A stretch of 24,000 bases of DNA from Hydrocarboniphaga effusa AP103 (GTDB lineage Bacteria > Pseudomonadota > Gammaproteobacteria > Nevskiales > Nevskiaceae): contig NZ_AKGD01000001.1 of the NCBI RefSeq assembly GCF_000271305.1, forward strand, positions 2,090,882 to 2,114,881, read 5' to 3'. A model generated the notes under the pieces. It was not told the DNA's origin and ran no database searches. It was given only the letters and a program-made list of their open reading frames with translations. The translations under genes were made by a program, and so were the position numbers. This document shows positions 6,952 to 20,659 of the stretch, piece by piece (the stretch's first letter is position 1; each line of letters starts with the position of its first letter).

Positions 6952-7828
6952 GGCGGGCGTGCGCGCATGCTAACCAAGCTCGGCAATGTGGGCTTCTTTC
7001 TGGGTCGGCTGCGATCTGTTGAAAGGAGAATTTTCCGCAGGCTCACTCGATGTGATTTCGCTTCTGAAGATTGTGGCGCGCGCACAACAACTGAATGTTT
7101 TCTGCTGTAAGCGATGTCCCGCCTCGGGAGAATGGCACGATATGGTCAAAGTGCAGCTCATCCTCTGCCTCGCACAGACGGCATTTGCCACCGTCACGCT
7201 TCCAGACTTCGAGCTTCACTGCGGTTGGAATAACTCTTCTCCGCTCTGCGTCGATATGGACAGGCTCTGCCAGATCATCGTCGCCCTTCACAGCAATGAG
7301 CCGAAACTTAAATACTGTCCGGTGATCGTCGCGCTCCTGCCATGAGTCAACGAGGTGAAAGATGCCGTTGTATGACCATATGCCCGACTTGATCTTCTCG
7401 TAGACCCTTACCCGTTCCGGGGAACTCCGCCCCGCCTTGAAGGCCTGCGCAGCCTGGTGAAACTTGCCGTTCTGCGTTCGTTTTCCAGAAGGCAGCATTT
7501 CGGGTTGGTCAACGACCTTGGGATTGGGGCAGGAAGCGTCTTTCGGGTGATCGTGTCCTTCGTAGACCAAGACTGTTCCGCCTTCCTCCAGTCGGTCCTT
7601 GTATGGAGCATTAGGCCGAACCGACATGAGAATGACGGAATGATCGCCGCCGAGCCCATAGTTCATTCCGCGCTGCAGGTTTACACCTTCACGCCGACAC
7701 ATTTCGTTGTGGGAAAGAATGTTGTCCGGCATATGTCTCTGAATTCGGGCTAAGTAATTTGATTGCGGGGTAGGGCGGCGATAGCCCTTTCAAACGTTGA
7801 TGCACTTCGGTGACTCAACCAATTTTCA
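6952..7828. other. low-GC islet (probable horizontally acquired insertion) carrying one gene
   Basis: Hand counts of G+C per 60 nt: 34 (7141-7200), 32 (7321-7380) and 30 (7741-7800), against 45 (6601-6660) and 37 (7861-7920) in the flanking genes. I found no integrase, tRNA or convincing terminal repeats. Confidence 0.6.
7043..7732 (-). CDS. SRA(YDG)-domain / HNH nuclease fusion: putative type IV modification-dependent restriction endonuclease
   Basis: The C-terminus is a ββα-Me HNH: CRLCEAEDELHFDHIVPFSRGG...NIQLLCARHNLQKRN. The N-terminal 150 aa follow the SRA pattern: GVNLQRGMNY, SVILMS..YKDRLEEGGTVLVYEGHD, PERVRVYEKI and GIWSYNGIFHLVDSWQERDDHRTVFKFRLI (compare UHRF1 ...[26 protein letters not shown], from memory). 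Confidence 0.8.
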   Translation of the reverse strand: MPDNILSHNEMCRREGVNLQRGMNYGLGGDHSVILMSVRPNAPYKDRLEEGGTVLVYEGHDHPKDASCPNPKVVDQPEMLPSGKRTQNGKFHQAAQAFKAGRSSPERVRVYEKIKSGIWSYNGIFHLVDSWQERDDHRTVFKFRLIAVKGDDDLAEPVHIDAERRRVIPTAVKLEVWKRDGGKCRLCEAEDELHFDHIVPFSRGGTSLTAENIQLLCARHNLQKRNHIE

Positions 7829-8245
7829 CTACACGGCCCGCGCAATCTCGTCGTAGCCGCGATTCAGGAATTCGAGCAGGCAGAAGCCGTTGCCGAACGG
7901 GTCGGCGAAGTGCGCGATGCGGCCCCAGCTTTCGGTGCGCATCGCGTCTTCGATCACCGCGCCGGCCTGCATCGCGCGATCGATCGCGGACGGCAGATCG
8001 TCGACGACGAAGTCGAGATGCACGGGTGTCCAGTGTCGCTCGTAACGGCGTGTCTCGCCGCTCGCCGAACAGGCTCGCGAGCCCGCTGCTTTGACCAGCA
8101 GATAAATCGGCGCCTCGGCCCCGAGCAGCTCGATGCCGCCATCACCGAAGCGACGCCCGATGCTCAGCCCGAGAGCCTGCGTGTAGAACGCGGTTGCGCG
8201 CGGCAGGTCGTCGAAGTCGATGTTGACGAGCAGCCGCGCGCCCAT
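7829..8245 (-). CDS. VOC-family (glyoxalase / bleomycin-resistance fold) protein
   Basis: The internal ATG at 8243-8245 gives 138 aa: MGARLLVNIDFDDLPRATAFYTQALGL...HLDFVVDDL...FADPFGNGFCLLE, a typical paired βαβββ VOC pattern. The track's 399-aa ORF is this gene plus an out-of-frame read-through across yhhQ. Confidence 0.8.
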   Translation of the reverse strand: MGARLLVNIDFDDLPRATAFYTQALGLSIGRRFGDGGIELLGAEAPIYLLVKAAGSRACSASGETRRYERHWTPVHLDFVVDDLPSAIDRAMQAGAVIEDAMRTESWGRIAHFADPFGNGFCLLEFLNRGYDEIARAV

Positions 8246-8967
8246 CAGCCGTGCGCCTTGCGCTCGCCCTCGTCGCGCAGCGAGAACGGGTTGAAGCTGG
8301 TGTGGGCGTCGTAGGTATCGACGCCTTCGGCGCGCTTGAGCGCGTTGACGACGACGTAGGTCACCGGCGTCAGCACCACTTCGAGCAGCACCTTGAACGC
8401 GAAGTTGAACAGCACCGCGGCGATCAGCGCCTTGCCCGACCACAGGCCGAGGAAGGCGATAGGGTAGAACAGCGCGGAGTCCGCGAACTGGCCGACCACC
8501 GTCGAACCGATGGTGCGCGACCACAGGTGCTTGCCCTGGGTCCAGACCTTCATCTTCGCCATCACGAAGGAGTTCAAGAAGTCGCCGACCCAGTACGCGA
8601 CCATGCTGCCGACGACGATGCGCCAGGTGTTGCCGAACACGGTTTCGAGCGCGGGCTGCAGCGTCTTGTTGTACGGATCGTCGGCGACCGGCATGGCGAG
8701 CACCACGTAGGTCATCACGGTGGCGAAGATCATCGCCGCGAAGCCGGCCCAGATCGCCCGGCGCGTGCGCGCGTAGCCGTAAACCTCGGTCAGCACGTCG
8801 CCGAAGATGTAGCCGATCGGGAAGAACAGGTTGCCGGCCGAGAACGCCAGCGTGCCGAGCAACGGGAAGTCGTACTCGCAGACCTTGCCGGGCCCGATCA
8901 GGTTGGAGCACAGCAGCACGGCGACGACGCCGCCGACGAAGAAGTCGTAGTAGCGGAAGCTCTGCAT
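8245..8967 (-). CDS. yhhQ: queuosine-precursor transporter, YhhQ/DUF165 (VUT) family
   Basis: Starting at ATG 8965-8967 gives MQSFRYYDFFVGGVVAVLLCSNLIGPGKV...FFPIGYIFGDVLTEVYGY..R..IW.GF, the conserved YhhQ core, with multiple TM helices. Its stop overlaps the VOC start (minus strand TGATG at 8243-8247). Confidence 0.85.
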   Translation of the reverse strand: MQSFRYYDFFVGGVVAVLLCSNLIGPGKVCEYDFPLLGTLAFSAGNLFFPIGYIFGDVLTEVYGYARTRRAIWAGFAAMIFATVMTYVVLAMPVADDPYNKTLQPALETVFGNTWRIVVGSMVAYWVGDFLNSFVMAKMKVWTQGKHLWSRTIGSTVVGQFADSALFYPIAFLGLWSGKALIAAVLFNFAFKVLLEVVLTPVTYVVVNALKRAEGVDTYDAHTSFNPFSLRDEGERKAHG

Positions 8968-9050
8968 GGGTCGAATCGTTCGGAGCGCGGGCGCGCGTCG
9001 ACACAACCTTAACAGAGCTCGCCGCCAAAACCTCTAGCCGAAATGCGGGC

Positions 9051-10742
9051 CTAGCGCTTCGCCAGCAGCAAGCTCTCCTCGATCGCCTCGCGTCTCCACT
9101 GCGCGGCCTGCGGCAGGCGCGTGCGCAGGTCGCCGGATTCCGGTGCGCGCAGCCAGCGCGATTGCTTGAGCCGGCGGATGATGGCGGGGATGTCCGAGGT
9201 CGGCTCGATGCGCTGGTTCCAGAGTGCGAGCAGCTGGTTCACCGACTGTTCGCGCGATTCGGGCGTGTCGGGCGTGGAGATGTTGAGCGGCAGCGTGGGC
9301 GTGACGAGGATGATCAGCGATTCCTGGCGGCGCAGGTCGGTGCTGCGCTTGGTGAACCAGTTCGCCACCGGCACGTCGCCGACGCCGGGCACTTTCGAAA
9401 ACGACTTGTCGTTGACCTGCTCGGACAGCGCGCTGAGCACGAGCGTCTGCCCGAACTCGACGTCGGCCGTCGCTGAAACCGATTGCCGGAACGTGGTCAG
9501 CGAGCTGTCGAAATTGCCGATCTGATCCTGCGACAAAAACGAGCGCGCCGCATCGAGGTTGAACACCACGCGCTTGTCGTCGATGAACTCGGGCGTGACC
9601 TTGAGCTGTACGCCGACGTCGATCGGTTGCAGCTGGCCGAGGTTGATGCCGCTGACCGCGACGTTGAGTGTGCGCCCGGCGAAGAACTGCGATTCGCGGC
9701 CCAGGTGCGCGGTGATCGAAGGCCGTGCGACCACGCTGTAATACTGGCCCGAGTCGTTGAACAGGTTGAGGCTGTAGTCGAGCTGCGGCGTCGAGATCTG
9801 CGAGGTGATCGTGCGCGTGCTTTCGCGGCCCAGGCTGCCGCTGATCTGCGAGAGCGTATTGGTGTAGCCGTACAGCACACGCAGGCCGTCGAACAGGTTC
9901 ACGCCGCGATTGGCCTGGTCGAGCACCGAGTTCAGCAGGATCGTCACTTCGACCACGACCTGGTTCAGCGCGCTCGCCGGATTCTGTGCCAGCGGCGCGA
10001 GCGGAGCCGAGTCGCCGCCTTCGTCGCCGATCGGCGTTTGCCGAACGGCCGGCGCCACTTCGAGATATTCGGCGACGCGGCGCATGGCGTAGCGCGCATC
10101 GGCATCGTCTCCGGTGGCGACGAGCTTTTGCGTCATCGCTTGCGCTTCGGGCTCGCCTGCGACTGCGAGCGCAAACGCATTCAAGCGGATCGACTCGCGC
10201 TGCTCGGGCGCGAGCGCGAAGCTGCGTTCGGCCGCGAGACGCATCAACGGCAGATCGCGCCGATAGTACGAAGCCACGCCGAGGCCGTAGAAGGCTTCCC
10301 AGCGGCGCGGCTGATCGAGCACGGCTTCGGCGAAGCGTGACTGCGCCGTGCGGTAGTTGCCGCGTTCGAGCTCGATGTAGCCGAGTTGCAGCAGCGCCCA
10401 GTAATTGCCGGGCGCGAAGCGCTCCGCGTTCGCATACCCGACGGCCGCGAGATCGAGCCGCGCGCGATCGCGTTCACGGCCGATGCCTTCTTCGGTCAGC
10501 GCATGCAAGAACTGCAGCTGGCCATTGCGCAGATCCTGTTGTAGCAGGCGCGCGATCGGTGCCTGCGCCTGTTCCCACTGGCCGGAACGCAGCGCGCGTT
10601 CGGCCAGTGGCCAGTCGGACATCGGCTCATTACTCGTCTTGCGAGCCGCATTGGACGCGCAGCCGGAGAGCGCGAGCGTGGTGGTGAAGACCGCGCATCG
10701 AATCAGCGATGCGCGCAGCTTGCGAGGGTTGAGGCGAGGCAT
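9051..10742 (-). CDS. outer-membrane lipoprotein: N-terminal TPR (pilotin-like) domain fused to a secretin C-domain
   Basis: ATG at 10740-10742 gives MPRLNPRKLRASLIRCAVFTTTLALSGC (lipobox). This is followed by about 220 aa of TPR-like repeats, then the secretin core from NQVVVEVTILLNSVLDQANRGVNL to GQTLVLSALSEQ...KVPGVGDVPVANWFTKRS...ESLIILVTPTL. The track start at 10781 is a TTG inside an 11-bp tandem repeat. Confidence 0.8.
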   Translation of the reverse strand: MPRLNPRKLRASLIRCAVFTTTLALSGCASNAARKTSNEPMSDWPLAERALRSGQWEQAQAPIARLLQQDLRNGQLQFLHALTEEGIGRERDRARLDLAAVGYANAERFAPGNYWALLQLGYIELERGNYRTAQSRFAEAVLDQPRRWEAFYGLGVASYYRRDLPLMRLAAERSFALAPEQRESIRLNAFALAVAGEPEAQAMTQKLVATGDDADARYAMRRVAEYLEVAPAVRQTPIGDEGGDSAPLAPLAQNPASALNQVVVEVTILLNSVLDQANRGVNLFDGLRVLYGYTNTLSQISGSLGRESTRTITSQISTPQLDYSLNLFNDSGQYYSVVARPSITAHLGRESQFFAGRTLNVAVSGINLGQLQPIDVGVQLKVTPEFIDDKRVVFNLDAARSFLSQDQIGNFDSSLTTFRQSVSATADVEFGQTLVLSALSEQVNDKSFSKVPGVGDVPVANWFTKRSTDLRRQESLIILVTPTLPLNISTPDTPESREQSVNQLLALWNQRIEPTSDIPAIIRRLKQSRWLRAPESGDLRTRLPQAAQWRREAIEESLLLAKR

Positions 10743-10777
10743 GGCGTGAAGGTCCGTAAGCAAGTCGAAAGTCGAGC

Positions 10778-10802
10778 GCAAATCAATCGCAAATCAATCG
10801 CA
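10778..10802. repeat. 11-bp tandem duplication, 2.3 copies (gcaaatcaatc)
   Basis: gcaaatcaatc gcaaatcaatc gca is read directly from the sequence. It spans the stop codon (10794-10796) of the 12-Cys gene and the short spacer before the secretin gene. Confidence 0.9.
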
Positions 10803-11315
10803 GCGATACAGGTTGGGACGGCCGATGCGATCCCAGAATCCGGCGCGATGGCTGTTGCCCGAGCAGCAGAAGTTGCGATCGTTGCGATGCACGCCGGCAC
10901 CGTCGCGTGCGCAGTAGTCCGGGCCACGTACGGTGCCGGTGGTATTCTCCACTTCGTCGTTGACGTTGCGCGTCCACTGGTAGCTCCACACTGCGCGATT
11001 GACCGCGCGAGTCCACTCCGCGCTGCAGCGATTGTTCTCGGGCGAGGTGCCGCACATCACGCCGTTCGGATTCGCGGCGCAGCAGGGGTCGTGCGTCATG
11101 CTGCCTCCGCTGACCTTGCAGTTGGCGCGATCGGCGCCGTTGGACGCCGGCAGGCACATCGCAACGCCGGCGAACTGGCCTTGATGAAAGCCCCCGCATT
11201 GCTGGCCGACGGCGCCGAAGCAGCGTTCCGCGAGCGCCGGCGTAGCACTGCCGAACAGCGAGAGCAGCAGCAGGGAGCCCAGCAATCTGCGAGCGTGCGT
11301 GAATATCGTCTTCAT
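10794..11315 (-). CDS. secreted 12-cysteine protein, unknown family (paralog of 14731..15243)
   Basis: ATG at 11313-11315. Signal peptide MKTIFTHARRLLGSLLLLSLFGSATPALA. The mature part has 12 Cys, and they can be aligned one-for-one with those of the 14731..15243 product. Confidence 0.7.
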   Translation of the reverse strand: MKTIFTHARRLLGSLLLLSLFGSATPALAERCFGAVGQQCGGFHQGQFAGVAMCLPASNGADRANCKVSGGSMTHDPCCAANPNGVMCGTSPENNRCSAEWTRAVNRAVWSYQWTRNVNDEVENTTGTVRGPDYCARDGAGVHRNDRNFCCSGNSHRAGFWDRIGRPNLYRCD

Positions 11316-11343
11316 CGAAAATCTCCGTTGAATGCTGCGCTTT

Positions 11344-11772
11344 TCAGCGCAGGCGCTTGACGGTCGAGCCGTCGGCGGCCTGCAAGGTGTTGTCGTCGAC
11401 GATCTTGATCAGCATGGTTTCGCTCGCATCGGTCTTCTCCGATTCGGGCTCCTTCTGGTCGCGTTCGATCTTGAGTTCGAAGCCGGCCTTGTCGGATTTG
11501 CCGACGCTGTAGCGGCCCTGGTTCGACTGCTGATCCTTGAGCGGCTTGAACGCGCTGTCGCGAATCGCGGTGACGTAGCGGCCATCGGGACGGAACTCGA
11601 TCACCGTGGTTTCGGTGATGCCGGTTTCCTTGTCGCTGACGCTGCTGCTCCAGCTGCCGAGCAGCAGCTTGATGGCATCGATGGGCTTTTGTGCGAGCGC
11701 GATCGGCTGTGCGGACGACAGCGCGATAAAGGCGGCCATCGTGAGCACCGCTTTTAAACTGAGTTTGCGCAT
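11344..11772 (-). CDS. small secreted protein, lipocalin-like (tentative)
   Basis: Signal peptide MRKLSLKAVLTMAAFIALSSAQPIALA. The mature start ...LLLGSWSS... and the alternating β-strand-like pattern resemble bacterial lipocalin-like domains. There is an acidic Lys/Glu-rich insert, ERDQKEPESEKTDASE. Confidence 0.6.
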   Translation of the reverse strand: MRKLSLKAVLTMAAFIALSSAQPIALAQKPIDAIKLLLGSWSSSVSDKETGITETTVIEFRPDGRYVTAIRDSAFKPLKDQQSNQGRYSVGKSDKAGFELKIERDQKEPESEKTDASETMLIKIVDDNTLQAADGSTVKRLR

Positions 11773-11824
11773 GAACGTGACTCCGGTGTGAGAACGGTGG
11801 TTCAGAGGGGATTCGAGTGGGTGT

Positions 11825-14701
11825 TCAAGGCGCGGCTTCCAGCACCAGGCTCACGCTGCCGCTGACGGCCAGGTTGTCGCCGCCATCTGGATGGCCGTTG
11901 CCGAGGGAGATGCAGTTCAGGCGCAATGCATGCGAGCCCGGCTCCAGCAGGCCTTCGGTGGGGCCGGACTGCTGCAGGCCTTCGCGCTTATCGGCGGTGG
12001 CCACGAACAGGCGGTCCAGAGACAGCTCCAAGTTGGAATCGCCACGCCCGGCGGTGGCGCTACCGCTGAAGCCGTTGATGCGATAGCGCAGCGGCTTGTC
12101 GCCTTCGACGAGGAACTGCACGTAGGCGGAACCGTTGCCCTGGCTGTCGGTGCCGAATCCTTCCGGTGTCGCTGGCACCGAGCCGCTGGTGTCGCAAGTC
12201 AGGGTGATGGCGCCGACGCGGCCGTCGCTGCGATCGAGGTTGAACGAGGCGCTGCCGACGGTCGATGCGCTGCGGCCTTCGCCACTTTTCTCGGCGTGCA
12301 CGGTGAAGCTGCCATTGCTGCGGAAGCCGGTATCGGGCGTGTCGGTCAGCGAGGCGCGTTGAATTTCCGCAGTGGTGGAAAAGACGCTGCCGCAACTCGC
12401 TCCGTTGCTGCACGACTGCGCGCGTGCGAAGGCCGACACACCGGTTTCTTCGAGCAGTGCGCTCGCCGTCGGCGGCGGTTCCACGGTGACGCTCACCGTG
12501 CCTTGCGCAGTGCCGCCCTTGCCGTCGCTGACGGTGTAGCCGAAAGCGTCGTCGCCGACGAAGCCGAGGTTCGGAATGTAGCGAACCGAATCGCCGGCGC
12601 CGACGATCTCGGTACGGCCGTTCTGCGGCTGCGTCACCGCATCGACCGTCAGCGCATCGCCGTCCGCATCGGTGTCGTTGGCGAGCACGTCGATGACGTG
12701 TCCGCCGCCGTTGCCGACGACCTGGGCGGCGTCGGCGACGGCGGTCGGCGGCTGGTTCTCCGCACGCGCGGTATCGAGCTCGAGCGCGGTCAGCTCGAAC
12801 GGCAGCTTGCGCGTGATCACGAAGGCGCTGAACTCGCCGACTTCGCCTGCATTGGGCGCGGTGAAATCGAACGCGAAGTGGGTTTGATCGTCGCTCGCGG
12901 TGAGGCGCATCACCTCGTTGAGCCCGCCGGAGCGACGCAGCAGCACCACGTCCTTGACGTTGTAATCGCCCAGGAACGAAACGTTGTCGGAATCGAGATC
13001 GAGCTCGAAATGCACCACGTCGCCGGTGACGAAACCGGCGCGATCCGCCGTCAACACGCCGGTCGGCGATTTGGCGAGATCGACCTGCGACAGAAACTCG
13101 AGTCCGGTGAGCCGAATGATGTTGAAGAGCTTGGCCAGGCCTTCGATGCCGGTGCCGAGTCCGGCGCGAAACTCCGCGAAGATGCGGTAGTTGGATTTGT
13201 AGAGCGGATCGGCGAGCTGCGTGGTCTTGGGCGCGAAGCTGCCGAACAGGCGCGGACCGGCCTTGGCTTGAAACGCGTTGAAGCGCAGCGATTTGAGCAG
13301 CGGGTTGCCGAGACTCGCGCCGACGGTGGCCGAGGCGAGCACGCTCGGTTCGAGCCGCAGGTCTTCGATGCCGGGCAGGTTCAGCGTCGGCGTGATGGTG
13401 TTGGTGAGGTCGCCGGCTGCGGCCACGAACATGCAGTCGCCGTTGCACTCCAGGCCGACGCGGCCGTTGAAGCGGGTTTCGTTCTTGAACGAAATGCCCA
13501 TCGTCGCCACGGTGATCTTGCCGCCGGCTTCGAGCGATACGCCGACCGGAACCAGGCCGCTGATGATCATCGACAGCGCGCCGCCCACCGGTACGCGGAA
13601 GGTGAACAGATCGGCCTTGCATTCCACCTTGCCTTCGAACGCGGCCACGATGTTGAGCCCGCCTTCGACGCTCGCCACCGGCGAGGCGCGCACGAGCAGG
13701 CGTTCGAGCCCGCGCGCTTCGGTGTAGAGCACGTCGAGGGTCGGGTTGATGGTCACGCGCAAGGCCGGCGGAGCCAGGATCGAAATCGGCAGCGGCGAGC
13801 CTTCGCGAAAATCCGGAATGAAGGTTTCGCAGCCGCGAGCCAGCGTCGAAGTGCCGGCCGCTGCACCGACCTTGGCGACCAGCGCATCGGCGCTCGCAGC
13901 GGCGGCCGAGGCGCGTGGCGTGAACGAAAACGTGTTGCCCTCGCGAGCGATCTCGTAATCGGCCGCGATCTCATCGGGAATATCGACCGGCGCTTGCGAC
14001 AGATCGAAGACCTGGTTGATTTCCAGGCCCGGAAACAACTCGTTCAAGGGTGCGAGCGCGAGCGTGAGTTCGATGCCTTCGGGACGCGTTTGCGTGGAGA
14101 CCACGCGACCGGCGACCGGCTCCGATCCGGTGCCGACGACGAGCGTTCCGGGCTCGGGCGCGGTCACGCCGCTGACGATCACGGTGTAGGTGTTGTCGAG
14201 GCCGGGCTCGGCGTCCGGATCGGTTTCGACCGCGCCGCGAACCACTTGCGAGTCGTCCACCAGCAGCGTGTCGTCGGCGACGCCGACCACGGCCGCCAGC
14301 AGCGGAGCCGACCGCAGCGTTCCGGTGGTTGCGACGATCTGGCTCGATCCGCTCGCCGCTTCGGCCTTGAGCAGGCCGGTGGAGTCGATCGACAGGCGAC
14401 CGCTGTCGGAACTGCTCCAGCTCACCGGCGCTGCGATCGTCGCGCCGGACGCATCGAGAACGCGCGCGTGCAGCAGGCGAGTCTGGCCGCGTTCGGTCAG
14501 CAGCAGACCGGTCTCGATGATCTCGATGCGAGCGGGCACGGCAGCGACGGGTGGATCGACCGGCGGGGTGTCGTCGCCGTCGTCGTTGTTGCCTCCGCCG
14601 CCACTGCAAGCCGCCAGCGTGGCCAGCGCGAGTGCTGCGAGCAGCGAGCGCCAACCCGGGCGTCGCGCATGGCGATCCCTGCGATCCTTGTCGATGAACA
14701 T
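11825..14701 (-). CDS. large lipoprotein (958 aa): Big_2-like Ig domain, an unrecognised core of about 450-500 aa, a cadherin-like domain and a C-terminal β-rich domain
   Basis: ATG at 14699-14701 with AAGGAA 7 nt upstream. Lipobox LALATLAAC followed by a Gly/Asp-rich linker. Big_2-like stretch ARIEIIETGLLLTERGQTRLLHARVLDASGATIAAPVSWSSSDSGRLSIDSTGLLKA. Cadherin-like stretch VIDVLANDTDADGDALTVDAVTQPQNGRTEIV...VRYIPNLGFVGDDAFGYTVSDGKGGTAQGTVSVTV. The 169 Arg-rich residues upstream in the track ORF overlap the neighbouring gene and were discarded. Confidence 0.8.
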   Translation of the reverse strand: MFIDKDRRDRHARRPGWRSLLAALALATLAACSGGGGNNDDGDDTPPVDPPVAAVPARIEIIETGLLLTERGQTRLLHARVLDASGATIAAPVSWSSSDSGRLSIDSTGLLKAEAASGSSQIVATTGTLRSAPLLAAVVGVADDTLLVDDSQVVRGAVETDPDAEPGLDNTYTVIVSGVTAPEPGTLVVGTGSEPVAGRVVSTQTRPEGIELTLALAPLNELFPGLEINQVFDLSQAPVDIPDEIAADYEIAREGNTFSFTPRASAAAASADALVAKVGAAAGTSTLARGCETFIPDFREGSPLPISILAPPALRVTINPTLDVLYTEARGLERLLVRASPVASVEGGLNIVAAFEGKVECKADLFTFRVPVGGALSMIISGLVPVGVSLEAGGKITVATMGISFKNETRFNGRVGLECNGDCMFVAAAGDLTNTITPTLNLPGIEDLRLEPSVLASATVGASLGNPLLKSLRFNAFQAKAGPRLFGSFAPKTTQLADPLYKSNYRIFAEFRAGLGTGIEGLAKLFNIIRLTGLEFLSQVDLAKSPTGVLTADRAGFVTGDVVHFELDLDSDNVSFLGDYNVKDVVLLRRSGGLNEVMRLTASDDQTHFAFDFTAPNAGEVGEFSAFVITRKLPFELTALELDTARAENQPPTAVADAAQVVGNGGGHVIDVLANDTDADGDALTVDAVTQPQNGRTEIVGAGDSVRYIPNLGFVGDDAFGYTVSDGKGGTAQGTVSVTVEPPPTASALLEETGVSAFARAQSCSNGASCGSVFSTTAEIQRASLTDTPDTGFRSNGSFTVHAEKSGEGRSASTVGSASFNLDRSDGRVGAITLTCDTSGSVPATPEGFGTDSQGNGSAYVQFLVEGDKPLRYRINGFSGSATAGRGDSNLELSLDRLFVATADKREGLQQSGPTEGLLEPGSHALRLNCISLGNGHPDGGDNLAVSGSVSLVLEAAP

Positions 14702-14730
14702 GTTGCGATTCCTTTTGCTTGATGCGGCGC

Positions 14731-15243
14731 CTAGCGGCAGCGCAGCTTGTTGATGCCCTGCAGATCGCGTTCGGCGAGCGCGCTGGCCGAGCGAGAGCAG
14801 CACCAGCGCTCGTCGCCGGGCGCGACGACGGCGCCGGCCGGGGCGCACAGGGCGTTGAAGTCGGCGATGCCGCTGCGATTGGGTTTCTGCGGATCGAGCT
14901 TTCGCGTCCAGTACAGGCCGTGCGAGGTGCGTTGCTGCGACTTCTCCCATTCGTAGGCGCAGTCGGCGGCGACACCGGGCTTGCCGCCGCAGCCCTGGCC
15001 CTGCGGATGCGCGGCGCAGCAGACGTCGTGCTCGATGCTGCCCGCGTGCACCATGCATTCGAGCTGCCCGCCGGCCGGCTTGCAGTAGGCCGGCTGGCCG
15101 CCGCCTCCGGTCGCGCAGCCCTGCCCGGCGGCGCCGAAGCAGGCGCCCGGCACGGCGGGCGACACGGCCGTCTGCGCCGGCGCTGCGGTAGAGCCGAGCA
15201 GCAGGCACAGCACCAGGACTGGAATGGAAGCGATAAGTCGCAT
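14731..15243 (-). CDS. secreted 12-cysteine protein, unknown family (paralog of 10794..11315)
   Basis: ATG at 15241-15243. Signal peptide MRLIASIPVLVLCLLLGSTAAPAQT. Motifs shared with the paralog: CFGA.GQ.C, GS..HD.CCA..P.G..CG, C..EW, WTR, C....GA.V, CCS, and RC at the C-terminus. Confidence 0.7.
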   Translation of the reverse strand: MRLIASIPVLVLCLLLGSTAAPAQTAVSPAVPGACFGAAGQGCATGGGGQPAYCKPAGGQLECMVHAGSIEHDVCCAAHPQGQGCGGKPGVAADCAYEWEKSQQRTSHGLYWTRKLDPQKPNRSGIADFNALCAPAGAVVAPGDERWCCSRSASALAERDLQGINKLRCR

Positions 15244-15277
15244 GGCGGGCAGTGGTGGTTTGAAGGCCCGGGCCGGC

Positions 15278-15784
15278 TTACATCACGTAGTACTTGCCGC
15301 TGCACGTCGAGTAATAAACGCTCGCGTAGCCGCAGGTGGGCGTGCCGCCGTCGTAGTTGCAGTGCTCGGCGCGGAAGATCAGCTTGGCGCGGCAGGAGCG
15401 GGCTTCGGCGGCCGGCACGACGAAATCGGCCAGCGCGGACAGGATCGATTCGGCCCTGGGTGCCAGCGATACCGGCTTGAACCTGGCGCACTTCTGCGCT
15501 TCGGCGGGCAGCTTGGCGAGCGGGGTTTCGACGCCGGCCTTGCCGTCGACGAACAGCCCGCTGCTGACGATCACGCCTTTCTTCACGTGTGCCCGCGCTT
15601 CGAGCACGCCGGCCGGCGTCTTTGCCGACGAGGTCACCTGCTGGCCATCCGGCAGCTTGGTCTTGGTGCCGGCTTCGAGCACTTCGACGTCGTAGTCCTC
15701 GTTCACGCATTCGGCGCGGGCGGGTCCGGCGAGCCCGAGCAGCAGGGCGGCAAGCGGCAGCAGCAGTTTGAATTCGAGGGACAT
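15278..15784 (-). CDS. secreted 6-cysteine protein, unknown family (first gene of the secretin operon)
   Basis: ATG at 15782-15784 with GAAGGAG 7 nt upstream. Signal peptide MSLEFKLLLPLAALLLGLAGPARA|EC. I recognise no family. Confidence 0.7.
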   Translation of the reverse strand: MSLEFKLLLPLAALLLGLAGPARAECVNEDYDVEVLEAGTKTKLPDGQQVTSSAKTPAGVLEARAHVKKGVIVSSGLFVDGKAGVETPLAKLPAEAQKCARFKPVSLAPRAESILSALADFVVPAAEARSCRAKLIFRAEHCNYDGGTPTCGYASVYYSTCSGKYYVM

Positions 15785-15817
15785 GGGCTTCTCCTTCACG
15801 AGGGGGCTGCGAGATGT

Positions 15818-15841
15818 GGAGCCCGATCGACGATCGGCTCC
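15818..15841. repeat. imperfect inverted repeat GGAGCCCGATCG-A-CGATCGGCTCC
   Basis: Read directly from the sequence; the arms differ by one extra C. It lies 34-57 nt upstream of the operon's first start codon. Confidence 0.6.
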
Positions 15842-15860
15842 GGCACCCCGACGCTAAGGC

Positions 15861-15889
15861 CCGAAGCCGCGCGAATCCGGACCGAAGCC
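15861..15889. promoter_or_regulatory. direct repeat CCGAAGCC x2 with 21-bp register
   Basis: CCGAAGCC at 15861-15868 and 15882-15889. In addition, GCCCGATCGA occurs at both 15821-15830 and 15887-15896. A regulatory function is inferred only from the position in the divergent intergenic region. Confidence 0.3.
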
Positions 15890-15897
15890 CGATCGAT

Positions 15898-15919
15898 TTC
15901 CGACCATTTCCCGACCATT
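15898..15919. promoter_or_regulatory. tandem 11-bp direct repeat TTCCGACCATT / TCCCGACCATT: candidate OmpR/PhoB-type wHTH binding site
   Basis: Two adjacent 11-mers, 10/11 identical, lie between the divergent regulator and the secretin operon. The 11-bp periodicity matches how OmpR/PhoB-family winged helices bind tandem half-sites (established). Assignment to this regulator is inference. Confidence 0.4.
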
Positions 15920-15987
15920 GCGGCGGCGCCGTTTCGCGCGCCCACGCGAGCGGTCAAAATCCGTCTCCGATCAGAGACATTCGAGTC

Positions 15988-18717
15988 GTGACCGAGCCAC
16001 TCGCCGCCGACAGCCCCGACGCCAAGGCCCGCGCCCCGCGCTGGCGTTTCGGCGATTGCGTGCTCGACGGCCGCACGCTCGAACTCACGGTGCGCGGCCA
16101 GCTCGTCAAGCTCGAGCCCAAGCCGCTCGACATGCTGATGTTCCTGCTGCGCCACCCCGACGAGGTGCTGACCAAGGACGAGCTGCTCGAAGGCCTGTGG
16201 CCGGGCCGCATCCTGTCCGAGTCGGTGCTGACCAAGTGCGTCGCCAAGCTGCGACAGGGGCTCGGCGACGAAGGCCAGGCGGTCATCAAGACCGTGCACG
16301 GCTTCGGCTACCGGCTGATCGCGCCGGTGACGGTCGAGCACGACGCCGCGCCGATCGCCGCGACCACCGAGCTGCGCGCCGGCCTGTCCGCGGGCGGACA
16401 TCCGCCGCAGCGGCCGCTGTGGGTGCTGCGCGAGGCGATCGGCGCCGGCGGCGGCGGCGAAGTCTGGCTCGCCGAACACGCCAAGACCGGCGAGCGCCGC
16501 GTCTTCAAGTTCGCCACCGACGCGGCCGGGCTGTCGGCGCTCAAGCGCGAGGTCACGCTGTTCCGGCTGCTGCAGGCTACCTACGGTCCGCGCGACGACC
16601 TGCTGCGCCTGCTCGACTGGAATTTCGAAACGCTGCCCTACTTCGTCGAGGCCGAGCACGTCGCCGGCGGCAGCCTGCTGCAATGGAGCGAGCGGCGCGG
16701 CGGCCTGGCGGCGGTACCGGTCGCCCAGCGCATCGCGCTCGCGATCCAGCTCGCCGAGGTACTCGCAGCCGCGCATGCGGCCGGCGTGCTGCACAAGGAT
16801 TTGAAGCCTTCGAACGTGCTCGTCGCCGGCAGCGAGGCCGAACCGCGGCTCAAGCTCGGCGATTTCGGCAGCGGCCGGGTGCTCGATCTCGCGCGGCTCG
16901 AACGGCTCGAAATCACCCGGCTCGGCTTCACCGCGATGCTCGACGACGACGAGGCCGGCACCACGCCGCTGTACCTCGCGCCCGAGTTGCTCGCCGGCCA
17001 GCAGCCGACCGTGCAGTCCGATCTCTACGCGCTCGGCGTGATGCTCTACCAGCTGCTGGTCGGTGACTGGCGCCGGCCGCTCGCGCCGGGCTGGGAGCGT
17101 ACGCTCGACGACGAGCTGCTGCGCGAGGACGTCGCCGCGGCCGCGGCCGGCGATCCGCAGCGGCGGCTCACCAACGCGGCCGAACTCGCGCGTCGGCTGC
17201 GCGAACTCGACGAACGCCGCAGCCAGCGCGCGCACCAGCGCGAGCTCGAAGCCGAGGCCGCCACGCTGCATGCGGCGCTCGAACGCAGCCGCCACCGGCG
17301 CAAGCTGCAACGCGCGATCGCCGCCGTGCTCGCGCTCGGCCTGGGCCTGTCGAGCTGGGGCTTCTGGAACGCGCGGCAGGCGCAGCACCGGGCCGAAGCC
17401 GCCGCCGCCGAAGCGCGCGCCGCGGTGAGTTTTCTCGGCGAAGACGTGCTCGCGGCCACCGATCCGTTCGGTGGCGGACGCCCGACCCTGAGCATCAAGG
17501 GCCTGCTCGACGAAGCCGCGCCCAGGCTGGCGACGCGGCTCGCCGACTACCCGGCGATGCGCGCCGAAATGGGCCTGGCGATGGGTCGCGCCTACGAAGG
17601 GCTCGGCGATTGGCCCAAGGCGCGCGAGCGGCTCGAAGTGGCGCTCGCCGAGGCCGAAGCCGTGCAGGGGGCGGATTCCGAACTCGCGCTGACGATCGCC
17701 GACCGGCTCGGCTCGCTCGCCCTGCTGCAAAGCCGCTACGACGATTCCGAGGCCTTGTACCGGCGCGTTTACGAGACCCATCGCACGAAGTTCGGCGAGC
17801 TCGATGCGCGCACGCTATCCGCGCGCGACGGCCTGGCCTGGCTGCAATACGAGCGCGGGCGCTATCCGCAAGCGGCCGCGCTGTACCAGCGGCTCGTGGA
17901 CGATTATCGCGGAGTCGATGAGCTTGGCCTCACGAGCGCGCAGTGGAGCCTGGCCGACTGCTATCTGGAGCTCAATCGCACGCCCGAAGCCGAAGCGCTG
18001 ATGCGCGAGGTCGTCGCCACCACGAGCCGCTTGCAGGGCGCGAAGCATCCGCGCGCGCTCTGGCAGCGCACCACGCTCGGCGACGCGCTGATGATCCAGG
18101 GCCGCTGGGACGAAGCCGCGGCGCTGTTCGACGAAGCCTACGAAGGGCTCGCGGCGACGGTCGGCGAAACCCATCCGTACACGCTCACGGCGCTGCACTA
18201 TCGCGGCCAGCTCCTGCTCGAACGCGGCGATCCGGTGGCCGCCCTGCCGCTGCTGCGCCGCGCCTACGAGAACCGCGTGCTCGCCCATGGCGTCGATCAC
18301 GTCTGGGCGCGCTATTCGGCCAATCGGGTGGGCGAAGCGCTCGTGCAGCTCGGGCTGGCGAGCGAAGCACTGCCGCTGCTCGAACGCGCGCACGAGCAGA
18401 GTGTGAAAGCGCAGGGACCGGATCATCCCAACGTGCTGCTGATCCAGCGCACACTCGCCGATGCGCTGATCGCGCTCAAGCAATACGACCGTGCCGACGG
18501 TTTGCTCGTCGACGGCCTCGCGAGAGCGCAGCGTACGCTGCCCGAGTACAGCCTGCGCATCGGCTACCTGCACGAAAGCCTCGGTCATTTACGCAGCCTG
18601 CAGAAGCGAAAGGATGAGGCACGGGCGCAGTACGAATCGGCGCGGGTGCTTTACGAGAACGCGATCGGCGCCACGCATCCGCAGACGCTGAAGCTCACGG
18701 CGCTCGCGCAGCGCTGA
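15988..18717 (+). CDS. membrane-tethered transcriptional regulator: OmpR/CadC-type winged-helix DNA-binding domain, Ser/Thr protein kinase, TM helix and TPR domain
   Basis: wHTH: WRFGDCVLDGRTLELTVRGQLVKLEPKPLDMLMFLLRHPDEVLTKDELLEGLW...VHGFGYRL. Kinase: IGAGGGGEVW, RRVFKFA, HKDLKPSNVLV, DFGSG and LYLAPE. A single TM helix AIAAVLALGLGLSSWGFW is followed by about 430 aa of TPR repeats. The start is uncertain: GTG 15988 is favoured over ATG 15814 because 15814-15987 is full of repeats and low-complexity translation. Confidence 0.8.
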   Translation: MTEPLAADSPDAKARAPRWRFGDCVLDGRTLELTVRGQLVKLEPKPLDMLMFLLRHPDEVLTKDELLEGLWPGRILSESVLTKCVAKLRQGLGDEGQAVIKTVHGFGYRLIAPVTVEHDAAPIAATTELRAGLSAGGHPPQRPLWVLREAIGAGGGGEVWLAEHAKTGERRVFKFATDAAGLSALKREVTLFRLLQATYGPRDDLLRLLDWNFETLPYFVEAEHVAGGSLLQWSERRGGLAAVPVAQRIALAIQLAEVLAAAHAAGVLHKDLKPSNVLVAGSEAEPRLKLGDFGSGRVLDLARLERLEITRLGFTAMLDDDEAGTTPLYLAPELLAGQQPTVQSDLYALGVMLYQLLVGDWRRPLAPGWERTLDDELLREDVAAAAAGDPQRRLTNAAELARRLRELDERRSQRAHQRELEAEAATLHAALERSRHRRKLQRAIAAVLALGLGLSSWGFWNARQAQHRAEAAAAEARAAVSFLGEDVLAATDPFGGGRPTLSIKGLLDEAAPRLATRLADYPAMRAEMGLAMGRAYEGLGDWPKARERLEVALAEAEAVQGADSELALTIADRLGSLALLQSRYDDSEALYRRVYETHRTKFGELDARTLSARDGLAWLQYERGRYPQAAALYQRLVDDYRGVDELGLTSAQWSLADCYLELNRTPEAEALMREVVATTSRLQGAKHPRALWQRTTLGDALMIQGRWDEAAALFDEAYEGLAATVGETHPYTLTALHYRGQLLLERGDPVAALPLLRRAYENRVLAHGVDHVWARYSANRVGEALVQLGLASEALPLLERAHEQSVKAQGPDHPNVLLIQRTLADALIALKQYDRADGLLVDGLARAQRTLPEYSLRIGYLHESLGHLRSLQKRKDEARAQYESARVLYENAIGATHPQTLKLTALAQR

Positions 18718-18979
18718 GCACCAGGTCTGCGGCGACGTATAGCGGCACCGGGCGCAGGTCCTTGCGGATGCAAGCGGACATGGAGAAGACTGACGACAGA
18801 ACGGGCTCAATGGACTGCACGGCCACCAAAGCGTGATCGTCGGCGCGCCTGCTGTTTCGGACGCGCAGGTTCAGCCGCCGCCGGCCGCGATGTCGCCGAT
18901 GCCGCAGTTCGTGTGGAGATGTCGACGGCTTGCTTCGACGAATGGACAGGCTGTTTCAAGTGGCGCAAAGGAAAATGTG

Positions 18980-19660
18980 ATGCGGAGGGAGATGAAAGGT
19001 GCTGAAGCTGCCGGTATGCGGGCGCTGATCGGCAGGTGCGGGCTTGCAGGCGCACTGTTGCTCAGCGGCGGCTGCGCTCCGCTCAGCAAAGACCAGTGCA
19101 AGACGGCGAACTGGCAGCAGATCGGTTACCAGAGCGGCGTCAACGGCCGATCACCCGTGCGCTACGAGGAAGAGCGTCAGGCCTGTGCCGAGCATGGCAT
19201 CGGCTCCGACGAAACCGGGTGGAAGATCGGTTACGCGCAGGGGCTCGGTGTTTATTGCACGGCTGCGAACGGCTATGACGTCGGCCGCCATGGTGGCAGC
19301 TACGATGAGGTGTGCCCGCCCGATCTCGATGCCCGTTTCCGTCCGGCCTATCAGGATGGCCGCCATGTTGCGGATCTGCTCAATGCACTCAACGAGCGAC
19401 GTTCTCGCCTGGACGACATCGGTCGCATCCTCGCCGACGACGACAAGCGCGCCCGCGACTACGTCGCCCTGATGCGCAAGAACCCGCAACCGCCGCCGCC
19501 GCCTCCACAGCTGCTCGAACGGCGTGCCCGCCGCGACCTGGAACGCGAGTACGACTATCTGCGCAACGAGCATGAGGGACTGCGCAGGGATTTCGAGCAG
19601 AACGACGGCGAACTCAGCGCACGATATGCGGTGCCGGCGATGGGCTACGACGGTCCCTAG
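18980..19660 (+). CDS. DUF2799-family lipoprotein
   Basis: Lipobox ALLLSGGC, then C.TANWQQIGYQSGVNGR...ACAEHGI...GYAQGLGVYC...G......Y.EVCPPDL...F, the repeated W/G..G..G-plus-Cys pattern I recall for DUF2799. ATG 18980 has AAGGA 7 nt upstream; ATG 19016 is an alternative giving a shorter signal peptide. Confidence 0.7.
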   Translation: MRREMKGAEAAGMRALIGRCGLAGALLLSGGCAPLSKDQCKTANWQQIGYQSGVNGRSPVRYEEERQACAEHGIGSDETGWKIGYAQGLGVYCTAANGYDVGRHGGSYDEVCPPDLDARFRPAYQDGRHVADLLNALNERRSRLDDIGRILADDDKRARDYVALMRKNPQPPPPPPQLLERRARRDLEREYDYLRNEHEGLRRDFEQNDGELSARYAVPAMGYDGP

Positions 19661-19851
19661 CGGTTGCGTGGCGGGCACCTCGGTTCGACATCCCGGTCAA
19701 ATGCGCGTACCGTGCCCCGCGCAAGTATCAGGCAGTGTATTCAGCTAGTTGGCGCCACAGCGGTTCTTCGGCGCGAAATTCCAGATGCGTTCCTTGACCG
19801 TTTGCGCCCAGCGGGCGGTTGGCCCGTTTCTCTTCATCAGGAACACATCTC

Positions 19852-20064
19852 ATGAGCAATACCCAAACCGGCACCGTCAAGTGGTTCAACGACGCCAAGG
19901 GCTTCGGCTTCATTACGCCGGCCAATGGTGGCGAGGACCTGTTCGCGCACTTCAAGGAAATCGTCGGCGATGGCTTCAAGTCGCTTGCCGAAGGTCAGCG
20001 CGTCGAATACGTCGAAGCGCGTGGCCCCAAGGGCATGCAGGCCACCAAGATCCGCCCGGTCTGA
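19852..20064 (+). CDS. cspA: cold-shock protein, CspA family
   Basis: [34 protein letters not shown]... contains the RNP1 (KGFGFI) and RNP2-like (LFAHF) motifs. It is 70 aa. About 190 nt of non-coding leader lie upstream. Confidence 0.95.
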
Positions 20065-20084
20065 TCGCTGCGTGCGGAGTCGTA

Positions 20085-20113
20085 GCGGCGGTGCGATGCG
20101 CCGCCGCCTTTGT
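20085..20113 (+). terminator. hairpin downstream of cspA (possible intrinsic terminator or attenuator)
   Basis: GCGGCGGUGC-GAU-GCGCCGCCGC forms a 10-bp stem including one G-U pair (20085-20107), followed by CUUUGU. The U tract is short, so termination efficiency is uncertain. Confidence 0.45.
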
Positions 20114-20154
20114 ACGCGGCCCGGCCGCGTTCCATTCTCAGGCAGGAGATTCCC

Positions 20155-20559
20155 ATGAGACCCAAGAACAACCGCAAGCCGCTGCGAGACGAAGCGCCCA
20201 AAGTGCGCCGTGCACCCGGCTCGCCGACCAAGAGCCAGCTGCGCGCTCACGCCGATGCGATCGAGCAGGCGCGCTTCGCCAAGTGGAAGACCGTGCTCGG
20301 CATCGCCGGCACCACCTGGAGCAAGGTGCACGCCACCGAGCTCAGCCGCAGCAATGGCGACATCAACGTGCTCGCCGGGCTGGTGCAGCTGCGCCATGCC
20401 CTCAGCCGCCAGGAAGCCGATAGCCAGGTGAAGGCGTTCTACGATCAGCACATGCAGATCGCGCCCATCACCTTGTCGAGCTTCATGCCCGCCGTCTCCG
20501 CGCGTCCCGCCGCCGAGCCGGTGGTCGCGCCGGTCGCTTCGTCGGCCGAAAGCGCGTAG
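20155..20559 (+). CDS. CsbD-like general-stress domain protein (tentative)
   Basis: ATG 20155 has AGGAGA 6 nt upstream. The core WKTVLGIAGTTWSKVHATELSRSNGDINVLAGLVQLRHALSRQEADSQVKAF aligns by eye with E. coli YjbJ WKQFKGKVKEQWGKLTDDDMTIIEGKRDQLVGKIQERYGYQKDQAEKEVVDW (recalled). Confidence 0.5.
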   Translation: MRPKNNRKPLRDEAPKVRRAPGSPTKSQLRAHADAIEQARFAKWKTVLGIAGTTWSKVHATELSRSNGDINVLAGLVQLRHALSRQEADSQVKAFYDQHMQIAPITLSSFMPAVSARPAAEPVVAPVASSAESA

Positions 20560-20606
20560 CCGTTCGGGTTGCGCAGGCAAGGTCGCCGTCATGCGGTGAC
20601 CTCACG

Positions 20607-20632
20607 AAAAAGCCGCCTTTCGGCGGCTTTTT
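20607..20632. terminator. bidirectional rho-independent terminator
   Basis: AAAAAGCCGCC-TTTC-GGCGGCTTTTT: a perfect GC stem flanked by an A5 and a T5 run. It sits between the convergent CsbD-like gene (ends 20559) and pntB (ends 20660). Confidence 0.8.
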
Positions 20633-20659
20633 CGTTTGCAGCGCGATGCTCAGCGCGGA

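Follow-up and report, generated by a model that had tools for sequence, protein, structure and literature searches.

A widespread TPR-fused lipoprotein secretin without adjacent secretion machinery anchors a variable operon of exported proteins in Hydrocarboniphaga effusa

Results

A six-gene operon ends in a TPR-fused liposecretin

We analyzed a stretch of 24,000 nt from Hydrocarboniphaga effusa AP103 (contig NZ_AKGD01000001.1, positions 2,090,882 to 2,114,881; hereafter the window), in which six genes, g1 to g6, lie head to tail on the minus strand and the last of them, g6, encodes a secretin fused to a tetratricopeptide repeat (TPR) domain (Table 1). An earlier note, made from the letters alone, had described six closely spaced minus-strand genes whose products all open with a signal peptide or a lipobox, the last carrying a secretin C-domain, and had found no partner machinery in the window. 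Translation of the window confirmed this description. The genes run from 15784 to 9051 with gaps from g1 to g6 of exactly 34, 29, 52, 28 and 51 nt, and all six products begin with a signal peptide or lipobox, every N-terminus quoted in the note being present. None of the components of a type II secretion system (T2SS), type IV pilus (T4P), tight adherence (Tad) system or type III secretion system (T3SS), including the secretion ATPase, platform and pilin, is encoded in the 24 kb. Within the operon no terminator-like site or hairpin was found on the minus strand, and the GC content is even. A crude signal-peptide/lipobox heuristic was positive for all six products against 41% of unrelated genes in the 84 loci described below, an outcome expected by chance in about 0.5% of cases.

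Table 1. Features of the operon, of the secretin g6 and of the divergent regulator (positions in the window).
Feature	Position	Strand	Description
g1	15278-15784	-	168 aa; signal peptide and 6-Cys protein
g2	14731-15243	-	170 aa; signal peptide and 12-Cys domain
g3	11825-14701	-	958 aa; lipoprotein, Cys32
g4	11344-11772	-	142 aa; signal peptide, Cys-free, weakly lipocalin-like
g5	10794-11315	-	173 aa; signal peptide and 12-Cys domain, short form
g6	9051-10742	-	563 aa; TPR-fused liposecretin, conserved anchor of the module
g6 lipobox L-S-G-C	10659-10670	-	Cys28, Ala at +2; read from sequence
g6 TPR domain	10041-10616	-	residues 43-234, about 11 helices
g6 secretin beta core	9294-9962	-	residues 261-483, after the linker, no N0-N3
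g6 C-terminal helical tail	9054-9293	-	residues 484-563, in the S-domain position
Probable divergent promoter region, g1/regulator	15785-15987		extent depends on the regulator start codon
Divergent regulator	15988-18717	+	winged helix-turn-helix, Ser/Thr kinase, transmembrane helix, TPR; longest open reading frame starts at 15814

The g6 protein, which is 100% identical to an NCBI entry called "hypothetical protein" from Hydrocarboniphaga, is a member of the secretin superfamily by both domain and fold. Pfam Secretin (PF00263) matches residues 335-484 with 76.1 bits against a cut-off of 27.5, and TPR_16 and weak TPR repeats are found at about residues 100-165. Neither Pfam nor NCBIfam matched a Secretin_N (N1-N3), STN/N0, AMIN or VirB9-like domain in the protein. 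An AlphaFold2 model built on 30 family members places a lipoprotein signal, the TPR helices (predicted local confidence, pLDDT, about 90-96), a 26-residue disordered linker, the beta core and the C-terminal helices (predicted at 494-511, 518-527 and 546-562) in this order. Secretin cores and TPR proteins were the only matches to the model in Foldseek: about 40 solved secretins, GspD, InvG, RcpA, PilQ, BfpB and phage pIV among them, matched the core with E values of 1e-15 to 1e-10, and CTPR matched the TPR part. Profile search of the PDB likewise returned GspD, RcpA, PilQ and pIV together with consensus TPR proteins. The best solved match to the core in both profile and fold was PDB 8jvb/9wfd, a "type II secretion system protein" of Acidithiobacillus caldus.

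By curated scores, N-domains and gene context, g6 lies outside the GspD, PilQ, MshL, HofQ, SctC and RcpA classes. The typed NCBIfam models for GspD, PilQ, SctC and MshL reached the C-terminal core only, with 38-53 bits against cut-offs of 238-351 (TIGR02517, GspD, 53 against 351; TIGR02515, PilQ, 45 against 284; TIGR02519, MshL, 38 against 250; TIGR02516, SctC, 39.5 against 238), and the HofQ model scored 33 bits against 554. The RcpA core matched g6 at E 2e-15 by profile and at rank 14 in Foldseek, and the VirB9-like/BON-type N-domain of RcpA is absent from g6. The TPR part resembles the PilF/PilW/TadD pilotins but is not, by sequence, a member of their family, as TIGR02521 (type_IV_pilW) gave 19.7 bits against a cut-off of 154. 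By analogy with RcpA and TadD (PMC10499894), the C-terminal tail of g6 may bind the fused TPR domain.

The TPR-secretin family is widespread and orphan at the loci examined

A protein search found 112 relatives of g6 with the same length and domain order, and a tblastn scan of one genome per species was positive in 253 species, the best 80 of which align over nearly the full length including the TPR domain. At least 80 species of alpha-, beta- and gammaproteobacteria thus carry a full-length relative. Relatives of nearly full length come from Nevskiales, Lysobacterales, Zhongshania and Steroidobacteraceae, from Rubrivivax, Rhodoferax, Ideonella and Methylophilus, and from Sphingomonas, Novosphingobium, Caulobacter and Asticcacaulis. 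TPR domain and secretin core are in one chain in all full-length relatives. Column identity across the family is highest in the core (0.57), followed by the TPR domain (0.38) and the tail (0.31). The lipobox consensus is LxxLxAC, and a crude regular expression found a lipobox-like motif in 62 of 83 members. Databases mostly give the members no name, or call them TadD, CpaC or PilF by misannotation. A literature search, incomplete in its coverage, found no description of a family of TPR-fused orphan secretins. The g6 family thus appears to be an undescribed kind of secretin, in which a TPR domain stands in place of the docking N-domains.

We collected 84 loci, namely the 80 found by tblastn, three fetched by protein identity and the window, with ±10 kb on either side (1.49 Mb of flanks). 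Six-frame regular-expression searches of these flanks found neither a Walker A motif of the GspE/PilB/TadA/VirB11 type (TGSGK[ST]T type) nor a prepilin cleavage motif; the TadA-type Walker A was thus absent as well, and no search aimed at Flp pilins was made. All-against-all clustering of the flanking open reading frames (ORFs) gave no conserved ATPase or platform cluster, and the precomputed Pfam tables of four loci (L001, L002, L003 and L100) listed no secretion machinery. The TPR-secretin is an orphan at every locus examined, which extends the stand-alone secretin of the earlier note well beyond the window.

The secretin is accompanied by variable exported proteins

Genes in the 84 loci were called with a self-trained codon-usage caller and export with the heuristic mentioned above; both recovered all six genes of the window. 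At least one same-strand neighbour lies within 200 bp of the secretin gene in 68 of 83 loci. The heuristic called 143 of 182 such neighbours exported versus 389 of 939 other genes (odds ratio 5.2, p about 1e-20), a comparison in which the contrast alone is meaningful, the 41% background being an over-call.

The neighbours belong to several families. F0 (415-640 aa) is found at 19 loci, the 12-Cys domain of g2 and g5 within the operon at 16, F2 also at 16, the g4 family at nine, and a family of about 100 aa directly upstream of the secretin at eight; the remaining same-strand partners fall into other, smaller families. Profile-profile comparison linked F2 to F9 (97%), F9 to F11 (97%) and F0 to F11 (85%), so that F0, F2, F9 and F11 appear from their profiles to be one superfamily. 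Ten representatives of the partner families were scanned against Pfam, and none had a domain. An apparent "second secretin" encoded upstream at betaproteobacterial loci was an artefact of single-linkage clustering, the protein being an F0-type partner. In the Stagnimonas version of the operon (L006), the gene at 8767-9357 on the plus strand encodes an exported protein of 196 aa in which the motif "DGSSNT(I/F/V)" is repeated four times; this motif is otherwise typical of H-X9-DG/DUF1559 pseudopilin-like proteins.

The partners are exchanged even between close relatives. The locus whose secretin is 88% identical to g6 (L004) has four genes, g2-g4-g5-secretin, and lacks g3, whereas that with 94% identity (L100) has seven, including an additional exported protein of 446 aa for which membership in F0 was considered and no relationship detected. 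Homologues of g1 elsewhere were found only in L006 (38%) and L100 (80%). In one Stagnimonas genome (L087), a g3 homologue fills the same slot between pntB and yhhQ, and the TPR-secretin of that genome is 1.6 Mb away. Since the operon varies between four, six and seven genes, g1 is restricted and g3 is also found alone, the six genes are not conserved as the single self-contained module that the earlier note had proposed. The conserved unit is instead the regulator, the TPR-secretin and variable exported partners, which here are the 12-Cys proteins and g4.

The pntB-yhhQ (Vut_1) interval, at 8245-20660 of the window, is a variable slot in Nevskiales. It holds seven genes in L100, six in the window, and only the g3 homologue with a 105-aa gene in L087; in Solimonas (L001) the secretin gene shares it with a two-component system and the gene for a 464-aa protein. 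In L004 the four-gene operon has yhhQ downstream.

12-Cys proteins, g4, g3 and g1

The earlier note could assign none of the three Cys-rich proteins to a family. Database searches gave no family for them either, but g2 and g5 turned out to be paralogues, with 32% identity and all 12 Cys aligned, to which the 6-Cys protein g1 is unrelated. The domain of g2 and g5 has an invariant GGSMTHDPCCA-type motif and a near-invariant HKND motif; His75-Asp76, Arg107 and Arg116 are invariant, and His143 and Asp146 nearly so. Pfam, NCBIfam and a profile search of the PDB gave no match, and an AlphaFold2 model of g5 (pLDDT 82) found nothing below E=2 in the PDB or BFVD with Foldseek. To judge from these searches, the 12-Cys domain is a new one. 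The likeness of its CFGAxGQxCGG and HDPCC motifs to the Ca-loop and CCxxHD motif of secretory phospholipase A2 found no support and was dropped.

An exhaustive profile search retrieved 355 cluster representatives of the 12-Cys domain at 50% identity. Many of these relatives are about 300 aa long with the domain C-terminal, and a few reach 800-1400 aa. Large relatives (P0174, P0192 and P0269) are exported proteins with CARDB or InlB-B-repeat domains and the 12-Cys domain last. The long forms were also considered as g4 fusions, which was rejected: the hidden Markov model of g4 finds none, and their commonest N-terminal domain, which in one member has a weak CarboxypepD_reg match, is unrelated to g4. 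The 12-Cys domain occurs within 7 kb of a TPR-secretin in 28 of the 84 loci, in all three classes, and in four loci (L006, L007, L008 and L010) the gene immediately upstream of the secretin is a g2-type copy. Metagenome contigs bearing g5 provided an independent sample in the reverse direction, in which the secretin was present on three of about six informative contigs. In one 12-Cys locus (L084), the gene belongs to a series of unknown genes not far from one for a reprolysin-like metalloprotease.

The small protein g4 gave weak matches to TIGR03066 (E 1e-5, 25 bits against a cut-off of 93) and FABP (E 0.09, residues 32-132). In 10 related loci, tblastn places a match to g4 next to the secretin; the ORF cluster of the g4 family, with the window counted, covers 11 loci. 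Wherever g4 and short-form g5 are both present, g4 is immediately upstream of g5, as it also is on seven of 11 metagenome contigs; this adjacency suggests that g4 and g5 form a complex.

The large lipoprotein g3 (lipobox LAAC, with Ser following Cys32) has a Big_2-like N-terminus, an unrecognized core and a Big_9/cadherin region at residues 646-742 (Pfam Big_9, 4e-21). The core had been unrecognized in the earlier note, and it stayed so when the family profile was searched against the PDB, which returned nothing informative beyond a Big_2-like immunoglobulin match. A relationship of the core to the recurrent partner superfamily was rejected, with an hhalign probability of at most 12%. Comparison with four relatives (P0329, P0334, P0335 and P0340) revealed that the N-terminal ~600 aa are a conserved module whose C-termini are swapped, Big_9/cadherin here and RCC1 repeats elsewhere. 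In this exchange g3 resembles a polymorphic surface or effector protein. One g3 homologue in another genome adjoins an extracytoplasmic function sigma factor. From the distribution of its homologues, g3 is a lineage-specific passenger of the operon. The g1 protein, for which the searches gave no family match, is likewise lineage-specific.

The divergent regulator and the flanks

The regulator transcribed away from g1 matches Trans_reg_C, Pkinase and TPR_12 in Pfam. In the numbering of the longest ORF, the winged helix-turn-helix (wHTH) domain covers residues 95-168, a single transmembrane helix 501-518 and the TPR domain 587-950 (about 360 aa), and the kinase motifs are intact (HKD327, DFG350 and APE389), from which the Ser/Thr kinase is apparently active. 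Its start is ambiguous between 15814 and 15988, and both the codon-usage caller and the gene call of L100 take the shorter form; the interval up to g1 is probably a divergent promoter region, and no sigma-70 consensus was found. This combination of wHTH, kinase, transmembrane helix and TPR is an unusual one-component architecture, and its topology would be like that of ToxR or CadC with a periplasmic TPR sensor. In 17 related loci, a long match spanning most of the regulator adjoins the secretin. Other regulators recurrently found beside the secretin are pairs of a hybrid histidine kinase and a GerE response regulator, and wHTH-AAA-TPR proteins. A regulator in which an alpha/beta-hydrolase is fused to GerE adjoins the TPR-secretin of Aquabacterium (L002, 7605-8684), and another is found beside a long-form 12-Cys protein on a contig without a secretin match (L085, 3331-5103), which hints at a regulatory partner common to both 12-Cys and secretin loci.

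The flanks of the operon are as the earlier note had them, with yhhQ and VOC genes on one side and a regulator, cspA and the pnt genes on the other. More fully, one flank carries Vut_1/YhhQ, glyoxalase/VOC, an SRA-HNH gene, TANGO2 and an acyltransferase, and the other the large regulator, DUF2799, CspA and PntAA/AB/B. The SAD/SRA and HNH endonuclease gene, at 7043-7732 on the minus strand next to the VOC gene, falls within the window's single kilobase of low GC (7001-8000, GC 0.56 versus about 0.66 elsewhere) and looks like a small foreign insert. A plasmid origin of the operon was considered and dropped, as megablast against PLSDB gave no match.

Discussion

A model for an outer-membrane-only secretin

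We tentatively propose, at somewhat less than even confidence, that g6 is a self-piloting secretin confined to the outer membrane, which exports variable cargo encoded by its neighbours under the control of the divergent regulator. The lipid anchor and the fused PilF/TadD-like TPR domain would make the protein its own pilot, by Lol targeting and TPR-assisted assembly, and its multimer would form a gated channel in the outer membrane alone. The proteins encoded beside it would cross the inner membrane by Sec and, once folded and disulfide-bonded in the periplasm, dock on the TPR ring there, to be released or exposed on the surface through the channel. The TPR ring would thus serve, in place of the N-domains, as the docking site and vestibule on the periplasmic side. 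In H. effusa, the 12-Cys proteins g2 and g5 may be the ancestral cargo, with g4 as a tightly linked lipocalin-like partner of g5 that could act as chaperone, adaptor or immunity protein; g1 and g3 would have joined the operon recently and be facultative cargo at most. The membrane-spanning wHTH-kinase-TPR protein would turn the operon on upon a periplasmic or envelope signal.

Several points weigh against this model, the main weakness being that a secretin confined to the outer membrane has no evident source of energy and nothing evident to open its gate, whereas the gates of known secretins are opened by a pseudopilus, a needle or a phage. Linkage of the secretin to any one partner family is partial, as the 12-Cys domain accompanies it in the 28 loci given above and the F0 superfamily in about 38, and no same-strand neighbour was called in 15 loci. 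Conversely, one 12-Cys locus (L084) has no TPR-secretin match within 2 kb upstream and 8 kb downstream, and another (L085) has none in 6 kb downstream on a contig that starts without upstream sequence. Homologues of g3 without an adjacent secretin, for example after a two-component system in Stenotrophobium, clearly function without one. The full architecture was checked in 80 of the 253 tblastn-positive species, the export heuristic over-calls, and the orphan status is read from the flanks of the loci.

The reach of the motor search bears directly on an alternative that we regard as distinctly unlikely, in which the TPR-secretin serves in trans as another gate for a T2SS, T4P or Tad system encoded elsewhere, its neighbours being substrates or unrelated. 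Every characterized secretin works with such a machine (PMC10499894), some JGI annotations name family members CpaC or TadD, and a canonical PilQ is present in the related genus Stenotrophobium. Yet g6 has neither the N0/N1-N3 domains nor the VirB9-like N-domain that contact GspC, PilP or basal components, its scores for all typed secretin models fall well short of the cut-offs, and none of the 84 loci has ATPase, platform or pilin genes beside the family member. The TPR-secretin also occurs in taxa that already have a GspD, CpaC or PilQ of their own, which we count against service in trans. It is likewise unlikely, to a lesser degree, that the neighbours serve in the periplasm as accessory or structural subunits (caps, gates or adaptors in place of the N-domain rings) or as sensors, and that the channel moves exopolymer, DNA, small molecules or periplasmic contents released under stress. 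A TPR domain joined to a channel is the layout of polysaccharide exporters, with weak NCBIfam matches of g6 to PgaA and PrsT and BcsC at Foldseek rank 50, and recent work links secretins to the export of slime (PMC12475490). The small genes that recur immediately upstream, some called as overlapping the secretin gene, look as if they encoded a stoichiometric partner (about 100 aa in eight alphaproteobacterial and related loci, 464 aa in Solimonas), and the tight g4-g5 spacing also suggests a complex. Across the 84 neighbourhoods, however, genes for glycosyltransferases, polymerases or DNA processing do not recur, and the swapping of partners between close relatives with four, six and seven genes is more typical of cargo or effectors than of subunits; the 12-Cys domain is, in addition, a C-terminal module of large multidomain exported proteins.

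A specialized version of the cargo model, to which we give a small probability, is the regulated release of a bacteriocin-like toxin, with the 12-Cys proteins as disulfide-stabilized toxins or enzymes, g4 as periplasmic immunity protein for g5 and the secretin as the pore. The invariant and near-invariant His, Asp and Arg residues in a six-disulfide scaffold suggest a catalytic or binding site, the strict order of g4 before g5 is like that of effector-immunity pairs, the domain is fused C-terminally to varied carriers as in polymorphic toxins, and the regulator is dedicated. On the other hand, the 12-Cys domain matches no toxin or enzyme in fold or sequence, g2-type copies have no g4-like neighbour, and many secretin loci have no 12-Cys protein at all. 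That the genes form no functional unit, the pntB-yhhQ slot merely gathering unrelated genes for exported proteins whose shared strand is incidental, is highly improbable. The content of the slot does differ among Nevskiales, from one g3 homologue up to seven genes, and g1 and g3 are demonstrably recent arrivals; but secretin, 12-Cys protein, g4 and regulator recur in other places and gene orders in Lysobacterales, Methylophilus and Sphingomonas, and the operon itself has gaps of 28-52 nt and no internal terminator.

If the proposed export holds for the family at large, TPR-liposecretins would define a new and widespread two-step pathway in alpha-, beta- and gammaproteobacteria, in which a lone outer-membrane secretin works without ATPase, pseudopilus or needle, its fused TPR ring both pilots it and selects folded, disulfide-bonded cargo encoded next door (12-Cys and F0/F2/F9/F11 proteins), and membrane-spanning regulators serve as the switch. 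We consider this broader proposal possible but rather doubtful. To our knowledge, secretins belong either to one of four large machines that span the envelope or to the export of filamentous phage, and in every case they dock via N-domains and are opened by a filament or needle. Export of the neighbours by g6 would count against the view that a secretin cannot act by itself, would constitute a new secretion pathway, and would assign a pathway to several sizeable unknown families, the 12-Cys domain alone counting 355 representatives. The family also poses the question of how a secretin gate opens without a piston, and g6 is a minimal secretin for structural and biotechnological work.

Comparison with known systems

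Among secretins, the lipid anchor of g6 recalls HxcQ of the Pseudomonas aeruginosa Hxc T2SS, which is cited in PMC12475490 as a self-piloted liposecretin. Like HxcQ, g6 bears its own N-terminal lipobox (LSGC, followed by Ala at +2). The N-domains are retained in HxcQ, whose gene belongs to a complete T2SS operon, whereas in g6 a TPR domain replaces them and no machine is encoded nearby. The pairing of a secretin core with about five TPRs is that of RcpA with TadD and of PilQ with PilF/PilW, where the TPRs form a lipoprotein of their own; the separate polypeptides of those systems are combined in g6 into one chain. The TadD pilotin binds the C-terminal tail of RcpA in its groove, and the N-domains of the typed secretins bind GspC, PilP and basal-body partners (PMC10499894). 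RcpA has a VirB9-like N-domain and PilQ has AMIN, N0 and N1, none of which is present in g6, and Tad and T4P genes are absent from the 84 TPR-secretin neighbourhoods. With GspD/PulD, g6 shares the core fold (Foldseek E 1e-13 to 1e-15) and would share Sec-exported substrates that fold in the periplasm, and it differs in lacking N0-N3 and nearby GspC-M, ATPase and pseudopilin genes. The T2SS substrate PulA is a lipoprotein displayed on the surface, a precedent for g3.

The earlier note had likened the system to the curli channel CsgG rather than to a T2SS. CsgG is an oligomeric lipoprotein channel that exports Sec-delivered proteins of its own operon without an inner-membrane motor. As an analogy of an outer-membrane-only step downstream of Sec the comparison is fair, but CsgG has an unrelated fold and a narrow ungated pore for an unfolded substrate, while the partners here are disulfide-rich and presumably folded, which would suit a wide gated secretin; exporters of the Slam/T11SS (type XI secretion system) and TPR-plus-porin kinds are closer in architecture. 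PgaA, BcsC, PelB and AlgK-AlgE also join a periplasmic TPR scaffold to an outer-membrane channel, but these are monomeric beta-barrels with synthases in their operons, and no such genes are found near TPR-secretins. Slam, a translocon that acts in the outer membrane alone, has a periplasmic TPR domain at its N-terminus, Sec-dependent substrates and variable substrate genes next to it. Its channel is a 14-stranded DUF560 barrel, for which g6 has no Pfam match; the two are unrelated in sequence, and the analogy is one of layout only. Should the neighbours of g6 be its cargo, the logic of Slam/T11SS, a periplasmic TPR translocon with adjacent cargo genes, would extend to another channel fold.

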